Under the pieces are notes generated by a model, which searched no databases, was not told the origin of the DNA, and saw nothing but the letters and a program-made list of their open reading frames with translations. This document shows positions 671 through 28,084 of a stretch of 64,000 nt of DNA, one piece after another. Numbering within the stretch: position 1 is the first letter of the stretch; every line of letters starts with the position of its first letter. Both the position numbers and the translations under genes were made by a program. Source of the DNA: Lingula anatina (lineage: Eukaryota; Animalia; Brachiopoda). The stretch is taken from positions 26,598,001 through 26,662,000 of the forward strand of contig CM120642.1 in assembly GCA_051362555.1 (NCBI GenBank), written 5' to 3'.

Positions 671-886
671 AGACTGCATTCCCATAGATTTAGATCGATC
701 CATCTAAATCGACCTAACTCCCTGGGGGTTCACGCTAAATTGATGTCAGCCAAGCACGCACGGTAGTTAATTACCCCTTACAGCTTTTAGTAGGCGGGAC
801 AGACCCTTAAGCCAGCTAGGCTGACAGTAACCTAATGAGACTCCCCACAGGGATAGATCGATCTAAAATCTGTGGGAATGGGGTCT
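671..886. mobile_element. PIF/Harbinger(Tourist)-like MITE, copy 1
   Basis: Terminal inverted repeats AGACTGCATTCCCATAGATTTAGATCGATC ... GATCGATCTAAAATCTGTGGGAATGGGGTCT with TAA-like flanks. A diverged reverse-complement copy lies at ~61314-61540. Confidence 0.7.
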
Positions 887-1432
887 AACAGAGAGATCAC
901 TGTCTGACCATTTCCTGTGTAGATAAATGAAGACTCATTAATTTTTATAATAATACAGTTGTGATAGTATTACAGTCAGATAGCTGCATATAGATGACAC
1001 AAAGTCATGTTGACATAGTTTCTTTGATGTGAAACTACGTTTGTGTGCAAATGATGTACACGTAACAGACTTTAGAATGTCACACATATTCTGAGGTTAT
1101 TCATTAACTACAAGTGGGCTCGGAGTGGCAGTTTTATATATGTCAGTAATATATGCCATTTGTAGTTCTAAAACATTTTTGACTTGGCAGGGTATTATAA
1201 AAGTGTAAGTTAACAAAATTTTATCATTTAATTAGCATAAGTTATTTTGGCAAGTTTCTGTTTCGAGGTGATTTTATTGGCAGTTGATAAAATGTTGAAA
1301 AAAAATACAGGTTCATGTGACTGAGTTTTGATAAACCTTAAAACCTATATTTCAGACGTATGATAAAAATTCTTCCATGGAAAAACAAGGGTGCAGTTCT
1401 GATAAAGATGATAATAGCACTACAAGGCCACA

Positions 1433-4400
1433 ATGTGTAAGCATGTTGCATTCGACTTATTATCGGGTTTAGATGGAAGAGTGATGGCAGGATGGAACGG
1501 AACCTGTGCTGTTTCCAATTGTTCTGGACATGGGATGTGTCATGAAGGCTCCTGCATATGTCAGGTAACGTAGTCCAGGGTTACGTATTAACATTTAAAA
1601 AAGGTAGATCGATCTAGGGATGGGAACCCAGTCTTGTTCTGCTGTTCATTGTAGTGGAGCAACTGACTGACTCTTACATATGCAGTTGTATTTTTATAAT
1701 AATGAATACCATGTGGTTCATAGTCAACCTCATAAATGGGAACCAAATTCTAACTGTCCTGTATATTTTGTTTGTTTTAGGTGCAGTTTACAGGAGGGAG
1801 GTGTGCTGAAATCAATCAAAGCTATTATATTGCGTTTGGCACATTCTTTTTCTTTTTATGCGCAATATCTATTATACAGCTGGTGAGTGTCAGTCTACAT
1901 CAACTGATTAAATTTTAAAATTAAGCCTTGTATTATTGTTGAGATTTTTTTTAATGCCATGAAAGATAAAAATGTATAATTAATTAATTCTTTTTATTGC
2001 ATGCTGTAGGAGGGGATAGGCTTCTTTATTTTTAATGTCAATAATAATTTTTTTTATGAAATTACATTTATACTGGTGTAATATGGTGACAATTCAACCA
2101 TCCTGCTGTGGAAATTTGGAAGGGAGATTTCTAGATTATCCTAATCTTGTACATGCAAGTCTCTTGTGGGACTCTTGGATGAGTTTATGAGTAGGTCACT
2201 GGGTCAACTTGACCAACCGGTCATTGCAAGGGTCTGGGTCATGGATTTGTTGTCATAGGCAGGTTTTTCATTTAAGGTCACCATTCAGGGATTGATAGTA
2301 AGGTTTTTAGGCACTTGTTCTGCAGGTGTGCATTCTCTCAGAAACTTACTCGGCATGCATGGAACTTTTTACTATCTTGAAAAGATTCACTAAAATTTAA
2401 CACCCCTCTCCTCCCCCTGCTTCAGTTCTAGATGAGGAAAAAGTCGGACAAATATGTGGAAAAAAAGCCATTTGCACATTCGGGCCAACTTGTCAGCAGT
2501 TTTACTTTTCTAATGACATTTTCTTGTCCTGGAAGCCTTATACATTACACTGCAGTGAACTTCTGCTTTTTTTCATTTTCAGTTCCTTTGTATAAGATCG
2601 GAATACCACAAGTATAAAAATTCTCTATGGCCAGCTTGTCGGGTCACAGTACAGAAACTTTTATATGTGCTCACCATAATTGCCACTGCAGTACGAGGAG
2701 CATATTTCTTGACACAGGTGAGCATTTCCATGAGTAGATTGATATTAATTTTAGATTTTTGTAAGCAGTGCAATGTTTCTTTAAACTGTCTGTAGTTCTA
2801 AACACTCCCCCACAATCAGAATCAAGTGTCCGAGCGTAAAATGAACCAATTTGATAAAATTTTACTCAATAATGCATCGTGAAAAGACTCTGTTCAATAA
2901 TATTTTGCTAGATAATTATTTTGATTCTCAGTTGTAATTTCTTGAACATTCTACATAATGCCACCTACCCTGGTATGACGTCTTATGCCAAATTACCAAA
3001 CTGTAGTATATGCCACTGGATTTGAGCAAAAATGTTCATTAGCTTGTTATAGTTGGATCATTAATGAAAATTATCGAACACAAGCCGAAATACATAAGCT
3101 AACGATATAAATTTATTTATGTTTATGTTTTATGTTTTATGTTTTATGTTTAACGGAATCAAAAAGAGACCAGTAATTCTTTCAGAGTGATGCCTCAAAT
3201 CCATTGTCCTCTAACCTGTGGAGTGCGTACTATCCAGTTGTACTATCTGGTGGAAGCTTGATTGTCTGTTTCTGGGCAGAGGTATAGGCAAAGTCCATTT
3301 TCTAATGCCTTTTTAATTGAAACGTTGAAATAATTTATTTGGCATTTGGCTTAACAGTTAAACAACCTAATGAAAATTCATCTAAATGTAAGTTTTGTCT
3401 TAAAAGTAATGAGATCATGATCACAAACATTTATGTCCTATTTTAATTATGTAAGATGGTACACAGATAATTGCTCTCATTATTATCTCCGTGGATGTTG
3501 ATTTTATCAAAAGCAATGTCAAAGAAAATGCTTTGTGTAATTTTTTTATTTTCTAAAAATTTCTTCCAGGTGTTTCATTTGGATGGTATACAATGTAACA
3601 AGCCTGGGTTTCTTAGCAAATCTAAAATCTTTTTCGCTGTTTTCAATGTAGTCTTACTTACCTTAGTTCTGTGTCTAGTGGTGCTCTCAGAGACAAGTGA
3701 TTTGGAGCATTTTGTAAGTTTAACTGACAGTGGATATTTAAAATCTAAAGTTCATTTTAATTTATTGAAATTAAAACTTCTGTAGAATTATTAAAATGTG
3801 CTAAGTTATTCAAGAATTTAGAAATATAATTTATAATTATTCAAGCATTGAAATGTACTTTTGATTGACACACATTTTGTTTTGTATAAAACGAAAACAA
3901 TTATTGAATGTACCCTGTGTGTCACTTCTAAATGTATTATGGGTCACAAGTGTCTTTACTATTGAATGTAATTCAAGAATTTATCTGAAATATATGTTTA
4001 TATACTGTGTTTTGAATGAAAGGAAACTAAAAGTTGGGGATGGTGACATTGAAAACTTGAATGACTGTTTTTCTCTTAATAATTTATCATAAGCTCATTT
4101 GTGTTGGTGTATTATGTGAAGATAATTTAAAATAGTGGGACAAGCAATTTGCTCCTAGTATTTTACCATTTGTTCTTTTGTTTTAACAGGCATACCAGAA
4201 CAGCATTTTTAGTGGCTGCTTTGCTGTTTTGATGGTTGTAGTGGTCATATTTCTTCTCATATATGGTGTAGAGGTGTTCTTTAAGGTAAAGTTCAGTAGG
4301 AAATGTTTTAATCTTTAGACTATTTTATTTGGGAAATAAATTTGTATGCTTCAGAAGTTAAACTTATTTGTAAGATTTAGTACTGATGTTGTGACAATTT

Positions 4401-7400
4401 CAAGACCTAGCTACTGCCGTTCATATCAGCTTAAAGCTGGATGAGAAAGATTAATCGATACCACCAAATAATCAAATAAGGACCCCCCATAGGACTTACC
4501 CAGTGTGATTTTATATCTCATGTCATTAAAATCTATTTTAGTCATTGTTAATCTGATAAAATTACAAAAATTATTTTAAAATAACTTACACAGGCCCGTA
4601 GCCAGGGGGGGGTTCGGGGGGTTCGAAAAAACCGCCCCTTTTGTCGGAAAAGGTCCATTTTGGGGAAAATTTCATCTAGGTTCACATAAGTTTCATTATA
4701 AAAGGTCCACTTTTTCAGAAAAAGAACCCCCCTTTTGAATTTCCTGGCTACGGGCCTGTTACATAATTTTATATTAATACCATAATAACTCAACTTTTTG
4801 ATGGACAGGGTCTGGCTATGTGGCAATACCTGGTTCCCTTAACAGTTATCTGAATGTACAAACATTTCTGAGGGAAGCAGTGAAAGTTTCACCCTTTTGT
4901 CACAATATCTTTCAATATACAATATAATGATTGTGCAAATATTTCTGAGTAAAGGCAGTGAAAATTTAACATTCTCATCACCATCCCTTTCAATGTTGTG
5001 CTGGACTTATCTTTATGAATACCATAACTGATCATGTATATTTCGTTCAATTCATTTTCAGCTTCATGGTGCTTTTATCCAAGCCAATGCAAGCCGAGAA
5101 CCATTGAACATTGTCCAACTCCACATGAGTAGACTGGGCCTGGTGGCTGCAGCTTGTTTGCAGCTAGCTACTGCACTGTTTATCATGCTTGAGATACTGA
5201 AAGACCAGTGGAAAGACAAGTGAGTACAAAGTGACTGGAATCCAGATGGCCTTCTCTTTTTGCTCCTGCCTCCCCCATCTTGGGTACCTTAAGACAATTT
5301 CTAATACAGCATTCTAGAAAACTTTCTCCTAAGGTGGCTCCCTCTGGATTAAAAAAAAAGATACTGAAAGGTGTAAGATTATGTACTGGCTTTCACTTAC
5401 AAGTTTGAAATGATTGTTTTCTTTATGTTTTTGATCTTTAAGACTATTTGATATTTCAGTATTGATTAATTAGATTTAAATTAACATGCAGATATACTTG
5501 TATCACAAATAAGCATCTAAACTGAGGGCATCAAATTTTAAACTTTGAGTCAAATAATTGTCAGAAAATATGAGTTTTCATTATGCTCTATTTTTCAGAA
5601 TTGATTTCGTAGGTTTGGCCTTATATGACATTTCATTCCGAATAGTTGAGTTTGGAGTTATTCTCTGGTTTCCCTGTGTTCTATGGAATGTAAAAAGGTA
5701 CCGTAAAAATGTTAGTTTTAATAGTTACTGTATTTTTATATCATTTTGTACCAGGAGTTACATTGTACTGTACGCAGTTTTTGGGGATATTTATTTGGGC
5801 AATCATCAAGTCTTCTTCATATTATTAGCTTATCAAATGTATGGCAGATATTTTCTATAAAATATGAACACTAAGTTTTACACAAAATTTCAATTTTGAA
5901 AAGCTTCCTTACCTAATTGAAGGTGCTATTTAAACTGAAAGGAAATTAAAGAATACATATTTTTAATGATGAATGCATAATCTACTCTGCAGACCAGACC
6001 AACTATGGCTGCTCAACCCCAGAAAAATTCTCAGATCAGCAGACGACAGTTCTAGTGGTGATGCTGAATACTTGTCAGAATCTTCAGAAACAGAGGGTCT
6101 TCTTCACAGGAACAAAAATGGTGGCCATTACAGTGCAATCAAAGATGGTGCTAAGGGAGGCGAGTGTTGGATTTGTTACGATAATGAGAGGGAAGGCGCT
6201 GGACCCTTGATAGAGCCCTGTAACTGCAAAGGAGACATGGCGGTGGCTCACCATGAGTGTTTAAGAAAATGGCTGATGGAGGTACGAATTGTACTGTTTA
6301 ATTGTTTCAGTAATAATTTTCATGTTACTGCCTCTCATGGTTTGCTCAAAACAATCTGTCTTGAATTGGTATTACCCCCTTTACACTGGACAGAGTCCTT
6401 TCTGTGTCCTTTCTGCGACCATGAAATTGGCATCGCTGTGGTCTTAATAAGGAGGCACCAGCATTGATCTCAGTGATCGACCAGTTGTCGGCAGGTAAAG
6501 TATTATAATTTTTTAACTTTCAAATTGGGCTGTACTGCTGGACGCAGAAAGGAAACCGTCCTTTGTAAAGGGGCCTTAAAGCAGTATCAGACTAAAGTCC
6601 TATTAATTATTATTATTATAGTATTGTTGAGAGGGCTAATTTTGAATAAATAGATTCAGGTGTTTATTTCCTCATTCAAGGGTATAGGCACTCCAGGAAA
6701 TCTCAGATGCAAGGTTTGCAATCAGAAGGTGAGTTTTTTCTTTTTTTTATTCTCTTCTATTACCATATACAGGACTTCCCATGTACAGGACTTACTGTAT
6801 TCTTTGAGGGACTTCTTTTTATCTGAAATGATTCAACTGACAGGTGATTGATGATTAATGCTACCCATTTTAACAATTTAAATGAAAGATTTCTGACTCA
6901 TATATCACATGAAAATTTGTAAAAAAAATCTTCATATTTCAGTATTGTTTAAAAGAAGGTCCCGTTCATCTGCTGTATGGCTTCACGAAGCAGCAGCGGC
7001 TTTCAATGCTGTTAGTCCTTGCTGTAATGTGTGGAGTCCCCGCTGCGGTCTACTATGTCTGCCACAACCTTCCAGTTGATGAGACCTGGTTGCAGGTGTC
7101 TGCCATAGGGGGCGCTTTACTAGTGGAGTGCCTGTGTGTGAGGTGAATGGAAACAGTTACAGCATTAATTGAAAATAAAAAGCTTGTAAAACTCATAGGA
7201 AGACATTGTAAGCACCCATGATTCTGAAGGTGCATTTATGAAGACTTCTTAGCAAATACAAGCTATCAATTGGTTATGAGATATTAAGATGTGTATTCAT
7301 GATTAAGATATAAATTTATGTATTTTATTTATTAATTTTCCAGGCTATTGGGTTTCAATGCAGTAGCTGCCTACAGAAGAGCAAAAATAGCTGCATTGCA

Positions 7401-7551
7401 GATATTAGAGAAAAAACAAGGGACCCCCTCAACAGAAGAACCCCAAACCAGCACAGTTCAGAGTGAAAATAATGTGCAATATGTTCAAGCTGAAGTGGAA
7501 GTTTTTCCAGCAACTTGTAGAGAAGTTCAGTCTCATTCCACAACGACTTAG
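1433..7551 (+). CDS. Uncharacterised EGF-like + 7TM (TOM1/THH1/GPR137-like) + RING-CH (MARCH-type E3 ligase) + 2TM protein; 12 coding exons
   Basis: In-frame exons with GT-AG ends: 1433(or 1484)-1564, 1781-1882, 2583-2717, 3186-3281, 3570-3713, 4190-4285, 5062-5219, 5599-5697, 5993-6281, 6681-6728, 6943-7142, 7344-7551. Encodes CAVSNCSGHGMCHEGSCICQVQFTGGRC (EGF), seven hydrophobic helices including FWAEVFH and FLLIYGVEVFFKL, C4HC3 RING CWICYD...PCNCKG...HHECLRKW...CKVC, then two TM helices. Confidence 0.85.
4591..4758. mobile_element. Short non-autonomous TIR element (CAG ends, hAT-like), 5-bp TSD
   Basis: TIRs CAGGCCCGTAGCCAGG ... CCTGGCTACGGGCCTG, flanked on both sides by TTACA. Confidence 0.75.
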
Positions 7552-8961: not shown

Positions 8962-11900
8962 CTAGCTGTTTTTCTCGGCTTGTCTCTCCTTTTCTTTTCT
9001 CAGATCCCTCTCAAAAGAAGTCTCTTTAGACCTGCTTCTTCGATGTTTGCTACTTTTTTCATGCTTTGAATATTTCCTATCTGGTGTGCGTGATCTTTTT
9101 CGGTCTTTGGAACGAGAGCGGTGTTTTGACTTCTCTTTTGATCGAGACCTGTGTCTTGTTCTATCTTTAGAGCGCGACCTATGCCGCGACCGTTCCTTTG
9201 ACCTGGATCTGTGCTTTGATCTTTCTTTGGATCGGGAGCGGTGCTTAGACCTTTCTTTTGAGCGAGACCGGTGTCTTGAGCTTTTTACTCTCTCACGGGA
9301 CCGTGATCGATGTCTCGACCTGTAATCATTCCGATGCCTGTCTTTTGACCTTGACCTCTGATGTTCTCTGCAAAACAGATGGATAATCTTAACAAACTGC
9401 TTGGTTTGTCACAAGATACTCTTAAAGTTCATTTCAGCATAAGACTGATGTTCATCGAGATTTTCTTAAACTACCGACTTAAGTTCAATCATTTCGGTCT
9501 TTTAAGGATGTAAAATGTTAAATGATGCAAATGTATAAAAAGATGACCACTTTTAAAGCAAGAGCATCTATTATTTGAATATTTGATAATTTCAGAGGTA
9601 ATATCAGACCCAGTTTGCCTACCTTCCATCTCTGCTCCTGGAATGGCCATCTCTCTGTTGACGATCACGTTCTTTCTCAATTTCTTTGGCGATATCAAAG
9701 GGTGGGCTTTTTTTCCTGAAGGGAGATCTAGGGCGGCGTTCTGGGGTTTTAGATCTGTAATTAATAGTAAAATCAACAGGCTTATTTTGCACAAAAGACT
9801 ATCGCAGATTATTTAAGGAAACCAAATCATACCATGGTTGCAGGATAGTAAAGCTGTCTATTTAATTCAAAGTTTTAATTGAGTTTAACCAAAAACGTAC
9901 CTGCAATCTCGAAGATTTCAAAGAAAACTGAATCGTTATATTAACAGGAGACTGATTTTTTATTACCATAATATACACACATATATATCACAATCCCAAA
10001 TGCAATGAAACTTGAATGAACTTTTACCTTCTTACTCTGGACATCCGAGCAGCTTCACCAAAGGACACATCTTCATCGGGGATCCGTCTATCAGCGCTTT
10101 GCTCCTCTTCTTCCTCTCCCCCAGCCACACGGACGGGACGGGCAAACTGGCGCTCTCGTAGACGCTGTTGATTGCTCTTCTGCACAGGCACGGGAATGCG
10201 TGGAAACAGCGTGCAGTACCACTCTAGTTTGGTGAGCCATTGTCGTAGCATTTCCCCTATTGTCATGACGTGCCCTGTTCCAGCTTTAACATCGATTTCC
10301 TGTAAGATAGAATGGGAATCAAGGTGTTTAATACAGGATTTGTCAGGTAGGCTCTTAAGTGTGGTTCTGCATGGGCCGTGCTCTAGCCATTATACCTGTA
10401 ATAATAACAGATACCAATTAGATAAATGTCATCATTTAATAGAAAAAATCCAGCATTAATTTCTTTTTTCATTTTTATTTAGAAAAAAATGAGTTTCCAT
10501 CCAGCTCTGACGCAAGTTTTGGGGATTAAAAATAAATAGATCCAAGAATGCCAATACAAAGTTTACAGCTACTAAAATTATGAGTTTCAGAATGAACATG
10601 GCACAATTCACTTATCTATTTTTTGTTTTGGGTGGAGGGGCGAGGGGATGATTAACTAAACGAGAAGCCTTTGACTTTTTCCATTTTTACTGATAAGAAA
10701 ACTGCATCTTCAATGAAAATGACTCTCTGTCTCACTTGTATACAAAAGGTTTGTCTTCAATAACTATTCAAACATACTGGATATTTTTCTTGAAACTAAC
10801 ACAAGACAAAAATTGTCTGCCCTATGGAGTTAAAGAGTATTCTCATTATTGAGGGAGGGTATGTTATTTGGCCATTTTTCCAAGTAGCTTAAGGAATTCA
10901 ATCATATAACATATGTAATTTCATCAACCAGAGGTAAGTAATGAAAACTAGAGTATTAATCGCCAATTAATATCTCCTCAACTATTAAACAACCTGGCAA
11001 TATATTATACAACAACAAGGCAATTTAAAGAAATGTTGACAGATTCAACAAGCCTGTTTTAGAGCTTAACCTCAAAGCGAGGTCCGTGTGCCCAGAGTCG
11101 TCACCCTGCAATCTTCGCTTTGGCGGCCATGGCTTAGAGCACCTGCCCTACAGTTACAAAACACATGAGACAGTCAACATTGTCAACCTCAACCTGTCTT
11201 TCTCATTTCAAAAATACTATTATACAGAAGCAAGCAGTTCAGTCCAATCAACTGTCGCCCTCTCAAAGTGATGATTTTGCACAACCAAACAGTACACTTA
11301 ACCCCATACTAAGAAAAATGTTTTGAAATATCTGTAAATCACACGTGTAAACAATGTGATAAGAAATTTGCTCTGTCTTGTTAGTTACAGGAAATCTTTC
11401 CATGCGATTCTTTAACTTCTACAGCAAACAGTTTGTTTGTACAGCAATTGCTTGCAAAAGATTACGAATAATAATTCCAGAACTGATTCAGAAGTTTAAC
11501 TGAACTGCTACCTCATTATAGCTTAGGTTTAGACAACTCAACAACTTCCATCAATTTACAACTGCTACTTTTGAAATGCATTTACTACATGATTTGTAAG
11601 ATCTACTTTAATGTGAGTTCAAATGTAAAGAAACAAAAGAGAAAGAAAACCTTTAGTACTCACCAATAATTATTGGATCTGCTCCAATATACCAGACTTT
11701 GTCAATGTTTTCAATGTTTTGTGCATTTGTTTTGACATGTTGTGTAAGAATTGTAAAAAGAAAATTTGGAGGTTCAAATTTCAGGCTTCTTGCTTAGATT
11801 AAAGTTCAAAGCTCCCTTTAAAAACTTACGCTTGGCTTTTTATCCCATTTCAAGAGTGAGCCAAAAATTATGTACTGGATACATTTCAAAGCAATAATCT

Positions 11901-13650
11901 ATGCAATGACACAAATATCAGTTTTCATACCCCCCCCCCACTCCCCCTGCCCCACCAAAAAAAAAAACTTTTTACCAAAAATGGTACTCCTATGTCCAAA
12001 GTGTTTAAAATATTTTCCATTGGTCTTGTTTGAAAACAGTACCCTGATTTTAGTGCTTTCTTTGCATGTGTTTTGTGCTACATACCTCCTCATCATCAAG
12101 GTAGGGTTCGTACCACTCCCAGAGGTCAGCAGGGGGTTGTGTATATCTGATAAAAAAAATTAAGAAAATGATGTGAAATACAGTCATAATTCTAACTGCT
12201 GCTCACTGTGGGGCTTTTAACAAATAAAAACAGAGCAAATTTGTGCATTTTTCTTCTGCACTTAATGAAAATTTTACTTGCCAGTATTACCTTAAGATGC
12301 CTCTTACAGCACTAAGGCAATATAATGAAAGCCAAATAAAGTGAGTTTCTTGTATTTGCCATCAACATACCTGAGGTACATAAAACCAAGTCCCCTGATG
12401 TAAGGAGAGTCTGTGTGTGTAATCAGTCCATTCACTTGCTTCCTGGTCAACTTCAGTGTGTACAGTTTGTAGAGAAGACAGTACGCACTGGAGACTATGC
12501 CACCAGCTCCAACACCTCGGACCTGAAATATGAAAAATATTGTACAGAAATGTACACATACACAATACACAATCACACACTCAAACATACACACACATAG
12601 CTAGTACAGTCTTTTATCTGAACTGCAAAGTACACGTTCAGAGCTCTTAAAATACATAATCATACTGAACAGTACATATACTGACATTCTAGGGACAGGA
12701 AACACAATTTTCTATGTCTTGACTTTTTTTTAGATTGTCTTTGCTAATGTCTATGGCAACTTGATTTCTTTAAGTAATAAAATGTAAAAACCCTGTTTAG
12801 AAAATGTAAATTCACAAGAATACAACTAGGAAAAGAGAATTTGCATATAATTATTGATTTGGCTTCAGTGAATGTGAGAAAAAAAAGTGGTCTTCAAAAC
12901 AGCTATCTGTATTTAGTACAATCCTGAGCTTGGAACCAGATGAAGTGTTGGACAGTTAATAGAAGAAACTTGTTGAATACACAAGGTAGGTTTGTTACCT
13001 GAATTTCTTTGTCCCACATCTTGAAACTTTGAATCAATTTACCCAGAGATAATTTTTATACTCAAGATTAACTTTTACTGAATGTACTTCCCCATTCAAA
13101 GATCAAAATACATATGCAATATCAACACATCTGACTTGAGACAAAAAAAACATTAAAATTTAATTAAACATACCCCTCCACACATTCCTGTCTGCCCAGC
13201 TGTCTTCCTGCTACCCTTCTCCCAAGGTTCAAGGTGAGTTACCTATTAATGTAAGTGTTAAGAAGGTCACGGATTGTAGTTTACATCATCAAAACAAATT
13301 TTCTGACTGACTGCACATTATCTTACTTTACCATGCGGTTTGGACAGCAGAAATATCTTAATATTTGGAATTTAAATAAAAAACTTTGAACATGATCTCA
13401 ATGACCATAGGTAAATACGATTAAGAATAAACTTTAACCGAGTTACTAAGTAAAAAATCAAATAATATTTTGTGGGAATACAGCTGTTACTTACCTTATA
13501 ATAAATCTCATCTATGACTTCATGGTACGTCTTCAGCTCATACAGATTAACTTTGAAATACGGCGATGACTGTATATTAGTTAATATGAGGCTATTTAGG
13601 TTCATGGTCGCCTCATTGCCCCAAATTGGTAGAGCACTTGTTGGTGCCAT
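8962..13650 (-). CDS. PRPF38B: Pre-mRNA-splicing factor 38B
   Basis: Exons 13650-13495, 13242-13174, 12522-12371, 12146-12086, 10299-10028, ~9754-9623, ~9367-8962. PRP38 motifs LPIWGNEATMNLN, HLEPWEKGSRKTAGQTGMCGGVRGVGAGGIVSSAYCLLYKL, DSPYIRGLGFMYLRY, LEWYCTLFPRIPVPVQK, and an RS/RE-rich C-terminus. A non-coding first exon ends at the donor at 14108. Confidence 0.95.
11071..11147 (-). other. Candidate 77-nt frameshifting (poison) cassette exon in PRPF38B intron
   Basis: GC-rich island in an AT-rich intron, bounded on the minus strand by ...gttttgtaactgtAG| and |GTtaag. Inclusion shifts the frame to a TGA early in the next exon. Contains an internal stem CAAAGCGA/TCGCTTTG. Confidence 0.6.
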
Positions 13651-14107
13651 GGTGAAGCCAAAAGACAACTGAAATAATATTTTAAGATTACATTTAACGT
13701 ATATTAGAGCTTATAAGAAAATAGAATTTCTAGAAAAATATTGTTAGCAAAACTGAAATTTAGTCGACAGTATTATTCACCTACACATTAAAAACCTTAT
13801 GACCTTTCCTATTCCAAGCGATATTTAATACGGCAACTTATCATACATTTTTATTAAAGTCATAGATCTAAACGATGTCTACATGTAAAAGGCCAAAAAT
13901 TAATATTCTTTTATTCGGCGCCATTTTAATAATTTTGCTCGAGATCGCCATGTGCCCTTGTGCCCTTCCAAAGATAACGAAAAACTCATAATATTTAGTT
14001 TCAAGTACCGCCTGTGATGTGAAAAACATTAATCCCAGGACACGTGGGTAATATAAAACTTAATAATTCACCATTTAAAAAACTGAAACCTGTATTTTAA
14101 TACTTAC

Positions 14108-17900: not shown

Positions 17901-18655
17901 CCGACCCATGGAGCGCAAAAATACTCAATATATAAAAGGCTTGATCGTGAGTACATTATTAGATTGAATTCCTCTTACATACAGTAAATCGCTCTTCATT
18001 ATCATTCCACATTCTCTAAATATTTTTGCAAACAAGCTGTGTCCTTAAAAACCAAGACTGCTAGGACGTCCGATCATAAATGAAAGTGGCTACAGGGGTT
18101 CCTTGCTAGTGCCATTAAGTGTTACGCATCTTGGACATTTGGGCTAGGATGGATGGTATCTGCGTTCCGGCATTATTCATGGAAAACTGCCCTTTCGTAG
18201 CCTACAAACGAAATATAACATGTTCACACGAAAGTATGAAAAGTAATTGAAAGCTTGGAGTAATTGCAACAAAGAACATGTATGTCACTGGTAATTACAC
18301 CCCGTTAATTCTAGAAAGTATTTTGATGTTTCATAGTACTTTGGCTGTTAAGACGATTATTTTATTTTACTTTCTTATATTTCTATAACACAACAAGTTT
18401 TAAAAAGAACTTGATTTAATTTTTAGTGTAACAATTGCACCCTAATTCTAAAATTGCAAGGGCTTGTTAATAATAATATAAAAATGCAATCTAGTTCAGT
18501 TTTATTAAAATTTGTATTCGGACCAGTGAATCCTGACTCAGCTCAGTACGTAATTTTAGGAAAGTTGAGGTCCGAATGGCCAGTATGGTAAAAAGTTTAT
18601 GGCAAAGACTACAACTGAAAAATCATTTTAGTCTATTTCTCTCCCCAATAATACG

Positions 18656-20943
18656 GCTTACCTTTATGGGTTTTCCATCTCAGTGAAACACCATATGCCT
18701 TGGACGCTTCCCCAATGCAGCCACCTTGTAGACAGACCATGGCAGGACTCGCTGGACGCTTCTCCAATGCAGCCACCTCGTAGACAGACCATGGCAGGAC
18801 TCGCTGGACGCTTCTCCAATGCAGCCACCTCGTAGACAGACCATGACAGGACTCGCTGGACGCCTCCCCAGTGCAGATACCTCGTAGACAGACCATGGCA
18901 GGACCCGCTTGGCGCTTCCCCAATGCAGCCCTCTCGTAGACAGACCATGGCAGGACTCGCTGGACGCTCCCCCAATGCAGCCACCTCGTAGACAGACCAT
19001 GGCAGGACTCGCTGACACCAAGGATTGATCGAAGTAGCGTAGATGTGGCCCTCTTCTCCTTGCAGTTGTCAGTGGAAGCTCTATAGAGAATTGTCGCAAT
19101 CGAGTTCTGTTAACAGAAAGAAAAACGGATTAATGACTTTTCCTACTTATGTCAGCACTCTGCATTCAGGCTTACCTTTCAGGGTTTTCCATCTCAGTGA
19201 AACACCACATGCCTTGGACGCTTGCCCCAATGCAGCCACCTCGTCGACAAACTATGTCAGGGCTCGCTGGACGCTTCCCCACTGCAGCAACCTCGTAGAC
19301 GGACCATGGCAGGACTCGTTGGACGCTACCCCAATGCAGCCACCTCGTAGACGGAACATGGCAGGACTCGTTGGACGCTACCCCCAATGTAGCCACCTCG
19401 TTGACAGGATATGGCAGGACTCGAAGTAGCTGAAGCGTAGATGTCGCCTTTTCTCCTTGCCGTTGTCAGTGGGAGCTCTATTGATAATTGCCATCATTGA
19501 GTCCTATTAACAGAAAAAAAAACGGATTAATGACTTTTCCTACCCATGTCAGCGCACTGCATTCAGGCTTACCTGTAAGTGTTTTCCATCTCTGTGTAAT
19601 ACCACATACCTTGGACGCTTCTGCAATGCAGCCACCTCGTAGCAGCCACCTCGTAGACAGACCATGACAGGACTTGCTGGACGTTACCCCAATGCAGCCA
19701 CCTCGAAGACAGTCCATGGCAGGACTCGCTGGACGCTACCCAAATGCAGCCACCTCGTAGACGGGCTATGGCAGGACTTGATGGCACCGAGGCATGATCG
19801 AAGTAGCTGAAGCGTAGATGTGGCCCTCTTCTCCTTGCAGTTGTCAGTGGGAGCTCTATCGAGAGTTGCCATAATCGAGTTCTGTTAAAAGAAAGAAAAA
19901 CGGATTAATGACTTTTCTTACTTATGTCAGCACACTGCATTCAGGCTTACCTGTAAGGGTTTTCCATCGGCCACCTCGTAGCAACCACCTCGTAGACAGA
20001 CCATGGCAGGGCTTGCTGGCGCCCAGGATTGATCGAAGTAGCTGAAGTGTAGAGGTGGCCCTCTTCTCCTTGCAGTTGTCAGTGGGAGAACTATTGAGAG
20101 TCGCCATACTCGAGTTCTGTTAAAAGAAAGAAAAACGGATTAATGACTTTTCCTACTTATGTCAGCACTCTGCATTCAGGCTTACCTGTAAGGGTTTTCC
20201 ATCGGCCACCTCGTAGCAACCACCTCGTAGACAGACCATGGCAGGGCTTGCTGGCACCCAGGATTGATCAAAGTAGCTGAAGTGTAGAAGTGGCCCTCTT
20301 CTCCTTGCAGTTGTCAGTGGGAGCTCTATCGAGAGTCGCCATAATCGAGTTCTGTTAAGAGAAAGAAAAACGGATTAATGACTTTTCCTACTTATGTCAG
20401 CACGCTGCATTCAGGCTTACCTGTAAGGGTTTTCCATCTCAATGAAATACCACATGCCTTGGACGCTTCCCCAATGCAGCCACCTCGTAGACGGACCATG
20501 ACAGGACTTGCTGGACGCTTCTCCAATGCAGCCACCTCGTAGACAGGCTATGGAGGGACTTAATGGCACCAAGGATTGATCGAAGTAGCTGAAGCATAGT
20601 TGTGGACTTTTCTCCTTGCAGTTCTTAGTGGGAGCTCTATCGAGAATTGCCATCATTGAGTCCTGTTAACAGAAAGAAAAACGGATTAATGACTTTTCCT
20701 ACCCATGTCAGCACACTGCATTCAGGCTTACCTGTAAGGGTTTTCCATCGGCCACCTCGTAGCAGCCACCTCGTAGACAGACCATGGCAGGGCTTGCTGG
20801 CACCCAGGATTGATCGAAGTAGCTGAAGTGTAGACGTGACCCTCTTCTCCTTGCAGTTGTCAGTGGGAGCTCTATCGAGAGTCGCCATAATCGAGTTCTG
20901 TTAAAAGAAAGAAAAACGGATTAATGACTTTTCCTACCTATGT
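18656..20943 (-). repeat. Higher-order tandem repeat: 7 exon/intron-like units, each containing 1-6 copies of a 52-bp minisatellite
   Basis: Units at about 18656-19175 (6 monomers), 19176-19572 (4), 19573-19950 (~3), 19951-20185 (1), 20186-20420 (1), 20421-20731 (2), 20732-20943 (1, truncated). Monomer CCCAATGCAGCCACCTCGTAGACAGACCATGGCAGGACTCGCTGGACGCTTC. The constant block reads on the minus strand as AG|GTAAGC ... ttttctttcttttaacAG (~69-nt intron). Confidence 0.9.
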
Positions 20944-23485: not shown

Positions 23486-25708
23486 TCAAAAATCCAAATA
23501 CTTCATAATTCGTTCATAATCCTGCACCTTTTGGTACATCAAAGATAACCTTATGTTCAAGTCAGCGTTGTTTTCATATGTTCTCCCAAACAATGAGAGG
23601 GTTTTATTCATAACTTTAAGTGCTATTACTTCTACCACTGTCACAGCTATGGTGAACGTGGCCGTATCTGCGTACAGTGAGAAAACATTGATTGTCCGAA
23701 GCGCGAGACCCCAGAGCGCCAAACAGCTCAGTACTTTTAAAATTGACCAGAATATTCGAACTCGTAGAGGATGGTACATTTCAGTCATATATTCAAACAG
23801 ATCACGTCTGCAATATGCCATACGATACTGGTCAAAACGGAGATATTTTTCCAGTTGAAATTTCTCTAATGTGGCGATGATGTCTTGTGAGAGGCGTTTG
23901 TAATGGAGAACGGTTGTAGAATACTGGTGCACGAGAAGGAGGGGGAATCCCACAATCATGGTGGCATATTTCATACTCACTTTAGCCTGTAATATCAAAC
24001 CAACCAGGGTCATCGTTAATACGTCTGTGAAAAACATACACACACACAACACGAAGAAAGACAACATGACAAGTGCGATTACATTTCCTACAAAGAAATA
24101 AAATGTTCCGAAAAACCAAACAATTTGACGCACTTTTCGCCAGCGACTTTTCACTGTCTTTTGCACGTACAGCCGCCTGCATTCTTTAAACGAAGCTGAC
24201 AACAAAATCCACATAGTGATGGCCATTGGAGATAGTTGAAGGAGTCCAAAGAGGGATAATGCGACAAAATGTACCGTGTTTATTATTACCTTCGGAAGAA
24301 ACAGCAAAAAGACCAACTTAGAAAACAGTATGGAAACAATGAAGTTTTTAAAATTATGGAAAGACTGACTCGGCGATACGTGCCTTGCTTGGTACCTAAC
24401 AAAACCCCTGTCACATCTGAAGCAATATTTGAAAATCGACGTCCATATATTTAATGAGAGACCACATTTTAGTCGAAAATGAACAATCCGGACAATTTTT
24501 TCAAATAAAGTACTTTCGTGAGAGCCAGGGCAGTGGAACAACACATTGTTGAGTTTTATATCCCAAAAGCCTATAACGATATTGTTAGTAACTGGGAAAT
24601 TTTCCTTAATATTTCTTGCGACACACTGTTGTACTGAAAATGGTAAGAGAAATGTGATAGCAATCACGAGCCAAAGGAACCAAACAATGTAAGCTTGACC
24701 AGAGAGAAGACGGCTTTCCATGATGCAAATACTAACCAAGAAACACAATCTTAAAATTCGACCAGGAAAAGATAACAAATAGCATAGTATTGCGTGGAAA
24801 TTATATGGAGCAATATCTGCCCTCATCCATAGTTTTTCCGACGGAAATTGGGGATCTTTTGAGTTCTTTTCGTCGTTACAATTATTGTTATTGGCAAGGA
24901 TAACATCAAGAGGATTTTCATTAATTGTTTCCACGTCAGTCGTGACTGCATCACAATTTTCCACCTCCTTAACCGTTTCGCTTGGTAAATATCTCAGTAG
25001 TAAGGGTGAAAAATTCCATAACACCAGTGACATGATAAATGCATATAGATAATGCCTCCAAAGATAAACAGTGCTTCGGCCCTTTTGGCCGTAACATTCA
25101 TACATTGGAAATTGAAACGATTCGTGCTTAACCATAGCCTTGAACAATTTAATATAATAACCCATACTTGGATAGTGGATAAACGGAGAAATTTCCCCCA
25201 AAGAGTCTGTGTAATGGCATATAGATGTATCAGTGCCATTGTCATAGTGTTTAACAAATCGATGGACCATGTCGTGTGAAAGTACATACTTGGCAGTAGT
25301 GCAATTTCCCCCACAGACAACATCTAGGTCGAGATAATGTATTCTGTAGTAGAATGTTTGCAGTGAGGCCAGTAAGTGGTTTGGCGGGTACTTGAGAACG
25401 TCTTTGAAACGGTTCCTAATCCATACGAAATGCTGGTAATCACTGATCAAAGGTGCATTTGAGTCGTTGCTATGGTAACTCATGACACGTGCTCGGAAGT
25501 GTACAATCCCGAGCTTGAGGTCATCTGGTTTCAAATGTAAGTTTTTCCACAGGTAATGATGCGTTTTGAGATTATCCGTTGGAAGAACACTCACAAAACA
25601 GTCGTGTCTGCTTTGGTTATCACCCACAGTGTGTGCAAGGAGACATTTGGGGTCAAAAAGGAGCAGGTAAAATAAAAATACAATCATCCATAGTCTTAAT
25701 CGATGCAT
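23486..25708 (-). CDS. Uncharacterised 740-aa single-coding-exon multipass membrane protein with signal peptide and Cys-containing ectodomain
   Basis: 2.2-kb uninterrupted ORF in AT-rich DNA. N-terminal signal-like MHRLRLWMIVFLFYLLLF, ~190-aa ectodomain with N-glycosylation sequons, and roughly 9-11 hydrophobic segments. A splice acceptor (ttttatcatttcAG) just upstream at ~25725 implies a separate 5'UTR exon. Confidence 0.85.
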   Translation of the reverse strand: MHRLRLWMIVFLFYLLLFDPKCLLAHTVGDNQSRHDCFVSVLPTDNLKTHHYLWKNLHLKPDDLKLGIVHFRARVMSYHSNDSNAPLISDYQHFVWIRNRFKDVLKYPPNHLLASLQTFYYRIHYLDLDVVCGGNCTTAKYVLSHDMVHRFVKHYDNGTDTSICHYTDSLGEISPFIHYPSMGYYIKLFKAMVKHESFQFPMYECYGQKGRSTVYLWRHYLYAFIMSLVLWNFSPLLLRYLPSETVKEVENCDAVTTDVETINENPLDVILANNNNCNDEKNSKDPQFPSEKLWMRADIAPYNFHAILCYLLSFPGRILRLCFLVSICIMESRLLSGQAYIVWFLWLVIAITFLLPFSVQQCVARNIKENFPVTNNIVIGFWDIKLNNVLFHCPGSHESTLFEKIVRIVHFRLKCGLSLNIWTSIFKYCFRCDRGFVRYQARHVSPSQSFHNFKNFIVSILFSKLVFLLFLPKVIINTVHFVALSLFGLLQLSPMAITMWILLSASFKECRRLYVQKTVKSRWRKVRQIVWFFGTFYFFVGNVIALVMLSFFVLCVCMFFTDVLTMTLVGLILQAKVSMKYATMIVGFPLLLVHQYSTTVLHYKRLSQDIIATLEKFQLEKYLRFDQYRMAYCRRDLFEYMTEMYHPLRVRIFWSILKVLSCLALWGLALRTINVFSLYADTATFTIAVTVVEVIALKVMNKTLSLFGRTYENNADLNIRLSLMYQKVQDYERIMKYLDF

Positions 25709-28084
25709 TGAAAAACTTGATTCTCTGAAATGATAAAATATCCTTTATAAGTTTTAAAGCCGTAAGTCATGTCGTCATTAAAGCAGAAACAGTCAGCAAT
25801 TTAAATGTCATTATCAAAATTCAATCTACTTTCTAATTTTTCTTTTTGATGACTTCAGTTCGTTAGGCGACATAGTTTCAAAGTTTATAAAATTACTTTT
25901 ATAAGATGAAAAAATGTATTAGTCATCACACATTTAGCATAAAGCTGCCATAATTAGCGTAGCTATTGTCAGTTTTATACGCACATGTATTGCCACTCTT
26001 TTCACAATGTTGATACCACCATTGGTTCAGAAGAATCCGCAGTAAAAATTCTTGCGAATGGAGCAATGGGATTGTCAATTAATGTGAAACAAAATCCGTA
26101 TGAAGAATACGAAAACAAACCCCCAATTTTCGTGTCGAGTAGACCACCGGTGTCACTTACTACGTTTACTTTTGTGTTTTTAATGCTAATATGCTAAAAT
26201 GAAAAAATTGCCTTAAATATTCTAAGCTTCAGCTTTCTCTTTCTTATAAACATGATTATATGTGATATATTTTATCTGTACTTATAATGCTTCGTTAAGT
26301 TTGGGTAAAATGCGAACATTTTTGTCGTTTTTAAGGAAGCGATAGGCAATGCACACGTTTCATTTTGTGTCCATTGTGTATGCTGAATAGGTTTCCGAAA
26401 CAAACTCGCTTACCAAGTAAACTCAGATTGTTTATTCAGGTCGCTATCACCCACGCGAAAAGGAAAATTTAATCTAGCACAATACTCCCTCGGGTTTGTC
26501 AAGGAAGTGATGGGACAAAAAGATATATTTGGTCGAGCCAAAATTCACTATTTAAAACGTCCACGGTTTGTTTTTCTATGTGCTAATACCAATTAAGACC
26601 TTTGGCGTTCATATTAAACCTATACCTTGGAAAAGACCGCTGGTTTTTACGCGTTTTTCTATTTTAGGGGGACCAAAGAGGAACAAATTTCCAAAGAGTC
26701 TACTTTAGAAACCGGTGAAGTAAAAAAAAAAAATAATAATAATAAAAAAATAATAAAAAATAAAGAGAGGGAGAGAGAGAAAGTGAGAGAGAAAGGTGCC
26801 AGTAACAATACCCTCAACTCCATTTTCTTTGTATTGTTTATGACAGATGTGAAAAAAGATTATTTACTCAAAATAAGAAATAAAATGAACAAATTTCCAT
26901 AAGCTGTGACAGCGTTGCGAATTCTTAGCTTTGTTGTTGGTCTTCCATACGCAGCACCATTCGCTATAAACTATCCTACATTCTATGGCAAAGCTTTAAC
27001 AGCATGTTATACAATGCAGCAAAAGATTTCTCTGGTTGTATTAAACACGTACTATAAAAGTTTATTTAACACAACTGCTAAGTTCAAGCTTATTTACACA
27101 GCGTCTATCCTTTTGTGAAGGTTACTTATTAAAGGAATGCGAATAAGACTTATCTCAGCTGTTGAATTGACAGAACTACTGTACTTATTATGTTGTTATT
27201 ATCTAATTCAAATCGTAATTATATTTCACATCTCAAAAATACTAAGTTTGCAGCCATGATGGGGATAAGGAGTGGGGTTTTCACAAAAGAACTGTCAATC
27301 TGCACATATTTTTACAATAATGGGACAATCACTTTTTTCCGTAAAATAAACATATTGTGTAATAATACCTTGCTTTATAACCGAATATTGCATAGGAAAA
27401 AAGTTACGACGATAGAAGCTGGGACAGATGAACAAAACGATAAAAGGCGTGGATAATTGAAGTTTTAAAAAACTAAATAAGTTCACATTCCTAATGAAAT
27501 ACACATAGTTGTTTGTTAACAAAAAAAAACTGCATAATAAGACCATATGCTATATCTTTTAATGAATATTGAATACGAAGATGGCCAATTTATCTCGAGA
27601 AAAAATATATATTATTCAATATCATATTTTTAATATGTAGAACTGCGTAGACGCTGCAGGTGTGTGAGAAATTGTAAAAAAATAATAAAAGTATAAAACT
27701 GAAAAATAAAAGTGCTTTACAGAAATCACCATGCACTAAATTTTGTCTTTGAAGGAGAGGACATGTATGTCTATCCATGGCGTCCATTGCTGCACGAGAT
27801 TCACTAATGCTTGAAAATATGTAGGCCTACCTCTAGTACCTCTAGTAGCTGTAACACCTGTAGCAAGCCTTAGTTTTACTAGCCTCGGTATAATAGCGTG
27901 GCTAAAGTTGATTGCATAATGATCTGCACTGCACGTGGTTCATAAAAAGCTTTTGACACATATGATACCTAGCAACTGTTATTGCCCGACATGTATAAAC
28001 CAAAACTAATACTTCAAATGGTTTTTCTTTTTTTAATGAGTCTGCGTATCAGTCAGACTCAAAACATGTCTATGTGACACTTAA

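Follow-up and report, generated by a model that had tools for sequence, protein, structure and literature searches.

A single Lingula anatina gene combines an EGF module, a predicted GPCR-fold bundle and a RING-CH domain in one protein

One spliced and expressed gene of Lingula anatina, at positions 1433-7551 on the forward strand of the window (the whole 64,000-nucleotide stretch of contig CM120642.1 analysed here), encodes one protein that carries an EGF module, seven transmembrane helices and a RING-CH domain. The gene comprises 12 exons (Table 1), all introns being GT..AG, and its spliced length of 1707 nt translates into 568 amino acids with one terminal stop, a product identical to Lingula anatina LOC106172960 X1 (RefSeq XP_013409367) at 563 of 568 residues (5 differences). 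Judged from its sequence, the protein is probably a membrane-bound ubiquitin ligase, and our main reading, to which we give a probability of roughly 45%, is that of an endosome- or lysosome-routed membrane E3 in which the seven-helix and EGF part would pick and position the targets.

The preliminary description of this DNA had claimed one continuous spliced frame running through EGF, seven helices, RING and two further helices, and had named the joints 5697/5993 and 6281/6681 for checking by RNA. Our RNA evidence comprises six runs of the same species label (X1, X2, X3, X4, X7 and X8) out of nine listed. Reads cross all 11 of the 11 exon joints in five of the six (X1, X2, X3, X7 and X8) and 8 of them in X4, which is shallow; this bears the claim out, with the two named joints joined by 77 and 20 reads, respectively, in run X1, 96 and 35 in X3, 22 and 20 in X7, and 2 and 1 in X4. 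Read mapping reports the intron-6 joint as shifted (4278/5055, CT..CA), the 776 nt skipped being equal to the modelled intron length. The minor isoform X2, in which exon 2 is skipped, has its joint 1564/2583 read once in run X1, six times in run X8 and not at all in run X2. At the 5' end there is an acceptor at 1351-1355, onto which a further upstream exon is spliced; a loose read end at 1354 is found in 67 reads each in runs X1 and X3, the joined upstream letters lying outside the window. Three out-of-frame uORFs (1360-1440, 1408-1440 and 1377-1472) extend across the start codon, and read coverage of the 3' UTR extends to about 8400.

Table 1. Parts of the Lingula gene and of its product, in window positions
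Feature	Positions	Strand	Remarks
5' leader part of first coding exon	1356..1432	+	acceptor, RNA reads, uORFs
Exon 1, aa 1-44: short N-terminus, Cys 1-5 of the EGF, sequons N22 and N29	1433..1564	+	
Exon 2, aa 45-78: Cys 6 of the EGF, sequon N56, TM1 for the most part	1781..1882	+	absent from minor isoform X2
Exon 3, aa 79-123: basic cytosolic loop 1 (predicted), TM2 (K103, R116)	2583..2717	+	
Exon 4, aa 124-155: TM3, CFWAE at its end	3186..3281	+	
Exon 5, aa 156-203: loop 3, TM4	3570..3713	+	
Exon 6, aa 204-235: TM5 with YG motif	4190..4285	+	
Exon 7, aa 236-288: variable loop 5, TM6 (S258, R259, G261)	5062..5219	+	
Exon 8, aa 288-321: TM7 (R302, E305, W311, C314, W317)	5599..5697	+	
Exon 9, aa 321-417: conserved W-x-L-N-P past TM7, acidic linker, RING-CH zinc ligands 1-6 (from 6165)	5993..6281	+	
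Predicted linker sorting signals: [DE]xxxLL aa 353-358 (6087-6104), YxxI aa 367-370 (6129-6140)	6087..6140	+	
Exon 10, aa 418-433: final two RING Cys (C427, C430)	6681..6728	+	
Exon 11, aa 434-500: TM8, most of TM9	6943..7142	+	
Exon 12 coding part, aa 500-568: TM9 end, basic stretch, variable cytosolic tail (predicted), stop	7344..7551	+	

Profiling of the layout across metazoans, as the preliminary description had proposed, found the order EGF, seven helices, C4HC3 RING and two helices in all 121 of 121 close homologues (by best domains), and the same layout in sponges and in two CRuMs protists, Rigifila and Diphylleia; the architecture, as dated by these sequences, predates animals. The range reaches amphioxus, with no vertebrate name among the homologues found and no named dipteran among the sequence matches. 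A search with a profile of three protist sequences recovered 2 proteins from 7997 candidates, one of the three inputs not being among them, and Atlas feature matches in ciliates and haptophytes (0.87-0.88; 0.76), being below the 0.9 bar, were excluded as homologues. Drosophila CG2991 (NP_608725; 562 aa) is tabulated as 'EGF_2, DUF1084, RING' (C4HC3) and as an integral membrane protein, neither a human orthologue nor a function being given (Ying et al. 2011, PMC3166285 supplement). Since its printed RING agrees by eye with the family consensus, CG2991 is a likely orthologue; elsewhere it appears as a trans-eQTL candidate for cry, as ring-gland-enriched with function unknown, and as an m6A target in a qPCR list. 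We found no study characterising the family in a literature search of mostly open-access papers. The earlier statement that no characterised protein is known to have this architecture is supported, but the layout had already been tabulated for CG2991 in 2011, so that the architecture is uncharacterised rather than unreported; new here are the predicted fold and topology, the protist members and the putative dileucine/tyrosine sorting signal in the linker.

The C4HC3 RING-CH followed by two helices, also part of the preliminary description, is confirmed. The Lingula RINGv domain scores 53 bits (Pfam cut-off 21.6) and begins at residue 379 of 568, after the seven helices, with C379, C382, C397, C399, H407, C410, C427 and C430 as zinc ligands, of which ligands 4 and 5 are separated by seven residues. 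The C4HC3 pattern is present in 121/121 close homologues, and by alignment seven of the ligands are kept in 86/86 rows and C397 in 85/86. Likewise kept are I381 (82/86), P396 (83/86) and W414 (86/86 rows), the positions of which we take to be E2 contacts of the RING. The RING Trp is described as an E2 contact also in PMC3166285. The RING is shortened in Corticium, Ephydatia and homologue P0157, that of Corticium scoring under the RINGv cut-off, and in the Lingula model the RING region is poor (pLDDT <50 at 336-385 and 390-406). The helices after the RING span 449-475 and 481-516 (pLDDT about 82-96 in the Lingula model) and coincide with two of the nine hydrophobic peaks of the family average (455-473 and 486-504), the Lingula model likewise having nine long helices. 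At the other end of the chain, where exon 1 has no evident signal peptide in its N-terminus and a second in-frame ATG at 1484 (M18), the Lingula EGF has six Cys (25-52) and scores under the Pfam cut-offs; EGF-spaced six Cys occur in 120/121 homologues, and several relatives score over the cut-off. This EGF is of the tenascin/teneurin type, its profile matching reelin and teneurin EGF chains, and is 44-62% identical from protists to amphioxus.

The seven-helix fold was checked by structure prediction, and two AlphaFold models both gave a GPCR-fold bundle with Z scores of 18-19 to GPCRs at 5-13% identity. The best GPCR match of the first model has Z 18.0 (rmsd 3.5, 246 aligned) and its best 50 matches are all GPCRs (Z 15.0-18.0), while the second model gives Z 19.1 (rmsd 3.3, 239 aligned), with GPCRs as 49 of the best 50 (Z 16.2-19.1) and a designed GPCR-like fold as the remaining one; the best Foldseek E value is 0.017. 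No TMEM8/PGAP6, PRRT or Doa10 structure is among the best 50 matches of either model, and no solved structure matched the seven helices by sequence. An Atlas search gave leads only, namely a DUF3522 cluster (TM 0.48) and PRRT3 (feature score 0.77). Class A motifs are scarce or absent in the alignment (DRY-like 2/86, CWxP 0/86, NPxxY 0/86), and a Cys at the top of TM3, as for the TM3-ECL2 disulfide, is found in 3/86 rows only. We predict, from the models, a GPCR-fold bundle without class A motifs, its N-terminus lying outside as judged from charge bias and sequons. Polar residues within the bundle are kept (R116 82/86, Y139 83/86, R302 79/86, E305 83/86), and Lingula lacks Y185, N211, Q265 and N295, which most relatives keep. 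The preliminary description called the THH1/TOM1 seven-helix family GPR137-related. Kinship with this family had been proposed for the Lingula protein on two motifs, of which FWAE-x-(F/Y)H is present and F-x-x-YG is not, Lingula having three residues between F and YG where the claimed spacing fits 72/86 family rows. The corresponding profile, PF06454 (DUF1084; Pfam gathering score 25), has no match on RefSeq XP_013409367 at E 0.05, on the window product at E 1 or from single exons. It is listed for 33/120 homologue rows and exceeds the gathering score in 12/20 family members (13 of them preselected as listing the domain; none of the other 7) and in 3/10 divergent members, the best being protists at 42.1 and 47.6 bits, with the match covering TM1-5 only (profile positions about 19-190 of 273). 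THH1/TOM1 kinship is therefore supported for the family by profile matches in relatives, not from the Lingula protein alone.

Net charge and sequons predict a topology in which the N-terminus and a glycosylated EGF lie luminal or outside and the RING, linker and C-tail lie in the cytosol. The net charge is positive in loops 1 and 3 and in the segments following TM7 and TM9 and negative in the N-terminal segment and in loops 2, 4 and 8, and 120/120 homologues carry one or more sequons around the EGF; loop 6, luminal in the proposed topology, is slightly net basic (+0.69). Conservation over TM1-7 is 0.78 in the cytosolic halves and 0.69 in the luminal halves (Mann-Whitney p 0.008, the positions not being independent); of the short loops, luminal loops 2 and 4 show the least conservation. 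The linker between the seven helices and the RING is variable, at 25-62 residues, and disordered in both models. A strict dileucine occurs in the linker of 9/29 named non-arthropods against 1.5 expected from shuffles (20/29 are without it) and of 0/46 arthropods against 5.6 expected, in a count of related sequences and for a motif chosen after inspection of the alignment. Together with the tyrosine signal, the dileucine may route the protein to endosomes or lysosomes in many non-arthropods.

The mechanism we propose starts from the one spliced reading frame with its conserved domain order. The EGF with its glycans and the N-terminus are predicted to face the lumen or the outside, and the RING, linker and C-tail the cytosol, where the RING would bind two zinc ions and an E2, because its eight ligands and I381, P396 and W414 are kept. 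The dileucine and tyrosine signals would send the protein to endosomes or lysosomes in many non-arthropods. In what is the weakest step, the cytosolic face of the bundle (the ends of TM3, TM5, TM6 and TM7 with W-x-L-N-P) and the luminal EGF would hold a partner, be it a membrane protein or a docked cytosolic protein, within reach of the tethered RING; the partner would then receive ubiquitin and be degraded in the lysosome, a scheme that would work without a ligand switch. The conserved EGF and bundle polar residues (R116, Y139, R302, E305) would suit a ligand site equally well.

A possible, if doubtful, alternative is a ligand-gated receptor-ligase, in which a luminal or extracellular cue on the EGF or in a bundle pocket would shift the cytosolic face in GPCR fashion and so release or aim the RING. 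GPCRs couple to effectors through the cytosolic ends of TM3, TM5, TM6 and TM7, and these ends are conserved here; the GPCR fold of both models (Z 18.0 and 19.1), the deeply kept polar residues in the middle and luminal half of the bundle and a six-Cys EGF placed directly on TM1 point the same way. Fold likeness alone, however, shows no function. The class A switch motifs are scarce or absent in the 86-row alignment, four residues common to most relatives (Y185, N211, Q265, N295) are lost in Lingula, the linker to the RING is variable and disordered, and for another GPCR-fold orphan, TM184C, clear constitutive G-protein coupling was not seen (PMC13581589). It is similarly rather unlikely that the family is at large a GPCR-fold receptor with a same-chain MARCH-type RING output, switched by a luminal cue onto membrane targets, that arose before the animal/CRuMs split, was kept across invertebrates and was lost toward vertebrates.

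Less probable still is a signalling scaffold with a built-in brake, the seven helices recruiting a cytosolic effector and the RING mainly ubiquitinating that effector or the receptor, thereby ending the signal. The cytosolic face is the most strongly conserved, the sorting motifs are of lysosomal type and there is a precedent in GPR137B, which is lysosomal and binds Rag GTPases (PMC7429791), but the Pfam link is to THH1/TOM1 and over part of that profile only, and TM8-9 would be left without a role. We consider a Doa10/MARCH6-like quality-control ligase of the ER or Golgi, its helices forming a channel for substrates, very unlikely: the protein is a multi-pass RING-CH and the Doa10 RING is its top PDB match in a single-sequence search (E 2.3e-6), but this match is to the RING alone and MARCH8 scores equally, the bundle matches GPCRs with no Doa10 chain among the best 50, and the Lingula RING is internal and not N-terminal. 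The chance that gene prediction fused two adjacent genes is negligible. Exons 8-9 carry more reads than the exons on either side in X1, X2 and X3 (in X1 about 170, the others 30-40), but this excess is much weaker in runs X7 and X8, no cluster of molecule starts is recorded at these exons, and every joint is read, that from TM7 to the RING included, which refutes the fusion at the level of adjacent joints; homologues, moreover, are whole on 2-3 kb contigs and in complete Trinity transcripts.

RING ligases on transmembrane scaffolds are an established design according to 10.1101/2025.09.11.675358, which covers receptor-type E3s (MEGF8-MOSMO-MGRN1, ATRN-MGRN1, ZNRF3/RNF43) that likewise combine a luminal module, a membrane platform and a cytosolic RING; these use single-pass or tetraspan scaffolds and partly separate subunits and have GPCRs as substrates, whereas in Lingula the GPCR fold is predicted within the ligase chain. 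MARCH/RING-CH ligases (MARCH1/8, 2/3, 4/9/11 and viral K3) likewise have a cytosolic C4HC3 RING with two membrane helices about 25 residues later. According to PMC13310625, they act on mostly membrane substrates, recognised via TM segments, with several in endosomes or lysosomes, and the RING of transmembrane MARCH proteins is N-terminal, in contrast to that of Lingula behind EGF and seven helices. With THH1/TOM1/TOM3 the family appears to share the seven-helix GPCR-like fold, many relatives scoring over the PF06454 cut-off, though over TM1-5 only and without a match for Lingula itself. GPR137 is described without any domain beyond its seven helices (PMC12716839), unlike the Lingula protein. 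The same survey of GPCR fusions, the main text of which has the whole words 'RING' and 'ubiquitin' 0 times, describes protist GPCR-PIPK and GPCR-TKL/K proteins, likewise seven helices with a catalytic domain (PMC12716839). There the fused enzyme is a kinase, as against a RING in Lingula.

Transmembrane RING ligases determine how abundant surface and lysosomal proteins are. To our knowledge, few that are controlled by signals are known, all on single-pass or multi-subunit scaffolds, and a conserved family with a predicted GPCR-type bundle and a RING in one chain would be a different design. The list of its domains can already be found in databases and in a single supplement, and we found no human member. 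For the THH1/TOM1-type bundle, which is poorly understood, the family would supply a built-in enzymatic read-out. It also allows a direct test of whether a seven-helix fold can gate ubiquitin transfer, and CG2991, the likely Drosophila orthologue, makes the genetics easy.

The preliminary description had placed the seven-transmembrane (7TM) core and the RING-CH domain in one continuous spliced open reading frame, and raw RNA reads bear this out, with all 11 exon joints read in five of six runs and 8/11 in the remaining run, the TM7-to-RING joint having the strongest support of all. The gene comprises 12 exons with GT..AG introns and a spliced frame of 568 residues. Searching with the exon 9 peptide returned the RefSeq product of the same Lingula anatina locus, LOC106172960, of which protein isoform X1 (XP_013409367, here P0008) equals the window product in length and differs from it at five residues; the RNA reads mismatch the window at many sites and so derive from other individuals. 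Skipping of exon 2 gives a minor isoform (7 reads across RNA runs X1 and X8) that matches RefSeq protein isoform X2 and would lack both the final EGF cysteine and the greater part of TM1. Exons 8-9 are covered ~5x as deeply as the flanking exons in runs X1-X3 (one study), and the excess is much weaker in X7 and X8 (another study); it reads as library bias, though it may reflect a shorter transcript. Given the upstream and second in-frame ATGs, translation may be repressed, or initiated at M18.

Features of the window, by window position
Feature	Position	Strand	Remarks
Repeat	681-890		16-nt inverted arms (689-704, 852-867); both-strand transcripts from other copies
Three upstream ATGs	1360-1472		out of frame; each opens a frame that spans the start codon at 1433
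EGF-7TM-RING-CH gene	1433-7551	+	
Second in-frame ATG (M18)	1484		good context
Short stretch, intron 1	1605-1634		related to the 681-890 repeat
170-nt MITE-like element, intron 6	4590-4759		perfect 17-nt terminal inverted repeats (4590-4606, 4743-4759); heavily read-covered from other copies
Exons 8-9	5599-6281		
TM7-to-RING joint	5697/5993		
Second MITE-like insert, intron 9	6376-6573		34-nt inverted arms, 82% complementary; many repeat-derived reads
PRP38-family splicing factor gene	8962-13710	-	convergent neighbour; last exon RS-rich
Tandem-repeat region	18633-19904		G+C-richer; long repetitive open frames
Hydrophobic multi-pass protein	23486-25744	-	uninterrupted 752-codon frame; no Pfam match at E 0.01
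Exon resembling ligand-gated ion channel TM region	28436-28825	-	score below cut-off
Exon resembling ribosomal protein L7Ae family	44638-46095	+	
Exon resembling Myb/SANT-like protein	57911-58339	-	

At E 0.001 or better, a P0008 search of 7998 candidates retrieved 408 proteins; among the best 120 of the 408, the named members come from cnidarians, molluscs, arthropods, echinoderms, hemichordates and amphioxus, with 36-53% identity to P0008 (the Lingula isoform excepted). EGF, 7TM core, RING and TM8-9 follow one another in the same order in 121/121 sequences tested, 110 of which also served to build the profiles for this test. A profile search of 1.84 billion representatives yielded 176 matches at E 1e-30 or better; within the best 150 of the 176, 21 are complete for all four parts, the rest being mostly short partial sequences and six of them unrelated EGF-repeat proteins. 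Named ones among 20 representatives examined include the sponges Corticium, Oscarella, Ephydatia and Sycon, two additional cnidarians, one nemertean and two protists, Rigifila ramosa and Diphylleia rotans, both members of the CRuMs, a lineage sister to that of animals, fungi and amoebae. Each protist displays the entire layout in alignment and exceeds the Pfam cut-offs for THH1/TOM1 (DUF1084), RINGv and one EGF family; in the Diphylleia model the RING is followed by two long helices, and TM8-9 identity between the protists and Lingula is 10-19% only. Vertebrate and nematode names are absent from the named matches of the P0008 search and from the named profile-search representatives, and the family was likely lost in vertebrates. 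Ciliate and haptophyte ESM Atlas clusters are similar in features (0.87-0.88) to the EGF-7TM part; they list no RINGv family, one carries EGF_2 in 17% of its members, and they are possible RING-less relatives. A quick tree of 48 rows splits the two protists and one further sequence from the other 45 rows (SH-aLRT 97) and recovers arthropods, molluscs, echinoderms, hemichordates and cnidarians, with long-branch misplacement of sponges and Lineus. This history is most simply read as vertical descent with many losses; alternatively, the family may have spread by transfer.

The 7TM fold expected earlier is recovered by prediction. In the AlphaFold2 model of the Lingula protein a GPCR-like bundle of seven helices spans residues 57-315 (pLDDT above 90 in most blocks) and two more helices lie at 449-516, with low confidence for the linker and for the larger part of the RING; the Diphylleia model agrees, its RING being better modelled. 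Both match GPCRs across classes, GPR6 ranking highest (Z 18.0 and 19.1, 10% identity), with weak Foldseek E-values. Kinship of the bundle to THH1/TOM1, as proposed in the preliminary description, holds by sequence at the family level, where 12/20 tested members (13 of the 20 chosen for that annotation) pass the Pfam cut-off and the two protists score highest, but not for the Lingula protein alone, on which the profile finds no match. The MARCH-ligase layout pointed out there, a RING-CH followed by two TM helices, is present; an N-terminal RING, a further MARCH trait, is lacking in the Lingula protein. The predicted fold is that of GPCRs, but class A motifs were not found in the family. Without an N-terminal RING and without class A motifs, the protein is placed in neither MARCH nor class A.

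From charge bias and sequons, the EGF module is predicted to be luminal and the RING and tail cytosolic. Stronger conservation marks the cytosolic helix halves and the W-x-L-N-P that follows TM7, and R116, Y139, R302, E305 and the EGF cysteines are retained from protists through amphioxus. P0008 is without four polar TM residues (185, 211, 265, 295) that most relatives keep, N295 being present in 109/110 rows with Lingula as the exception. Dileucine- and tyrosine-type motifs sort proteins to lysosomes; in the variable linker, [DE]xxxL[LI] occurs in 9/29 named non-arthropods, against 1.5 expected, and a less strict dileucine with Y-x-[ST] after it likewise in 9/29, against 0.2 expected; the arthropod count is 0/46. 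The motif was picked after the alignment had been inspected.

As the RING appears catalytically intact, it very probably transfers ubiquitin. The 7TM-EGF part may select targets for the ligase within the endosome-lysosome route, a platform role to which we assign a probability of roughly 0.45 because conservation is cytosolic, switch motifs are lacking and the RING is loosely tethered, and by analogy with MARCH and MEGF8-type ligases, which are so described in the available parts of PMC13310625 and 10.1101/2025.09.11.675358. Gating of the ligase by a ligand through the 7TM-EGF part, with which the predicted GPCR fold, the polar residues buried in the bundle and the retained EGF are consistent, is the less probable alternative; a signalling scaffold that carries its own brake is improbable, and an ER quality control ligase more so still.

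The same domain list of EGF, DUF1084-type 7TM and RING is found in Drosophila CG2991, which the available part of the PMC3166285 supplement gives as 562 aa, 'EGF_2, DUF1084, RING', without a human orthologue or a target; judged by eye, its RING fits the family consensus. In the portions available, CG2991 further appears in an m6A qPCR list (PMC8041851), as an eQTL candidate (10.1101/2025.05.18.654706) and as a ring-gland marker without an assigned function (PMC9404646). A literature search on GPCR/7TM-RING or GPCR-E3 fusions, on the locus by name and on CG2991 by accession returned no matching paper, and the accessible parts of PMC12716839, PMC13581589, PMC13310625, PMC3804464, PMC7429791, PMC11465672 and 10.1101/2025.09.11.675358 contain no description of a 7TM-RING fusion. 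The gene and its family are real, expressed, ancient and uncharacterised, and, judged by sequence and model, the protein combines a MARCH-like layout with a GPCR-fold front end and is a probable transmembrane RING ligase.
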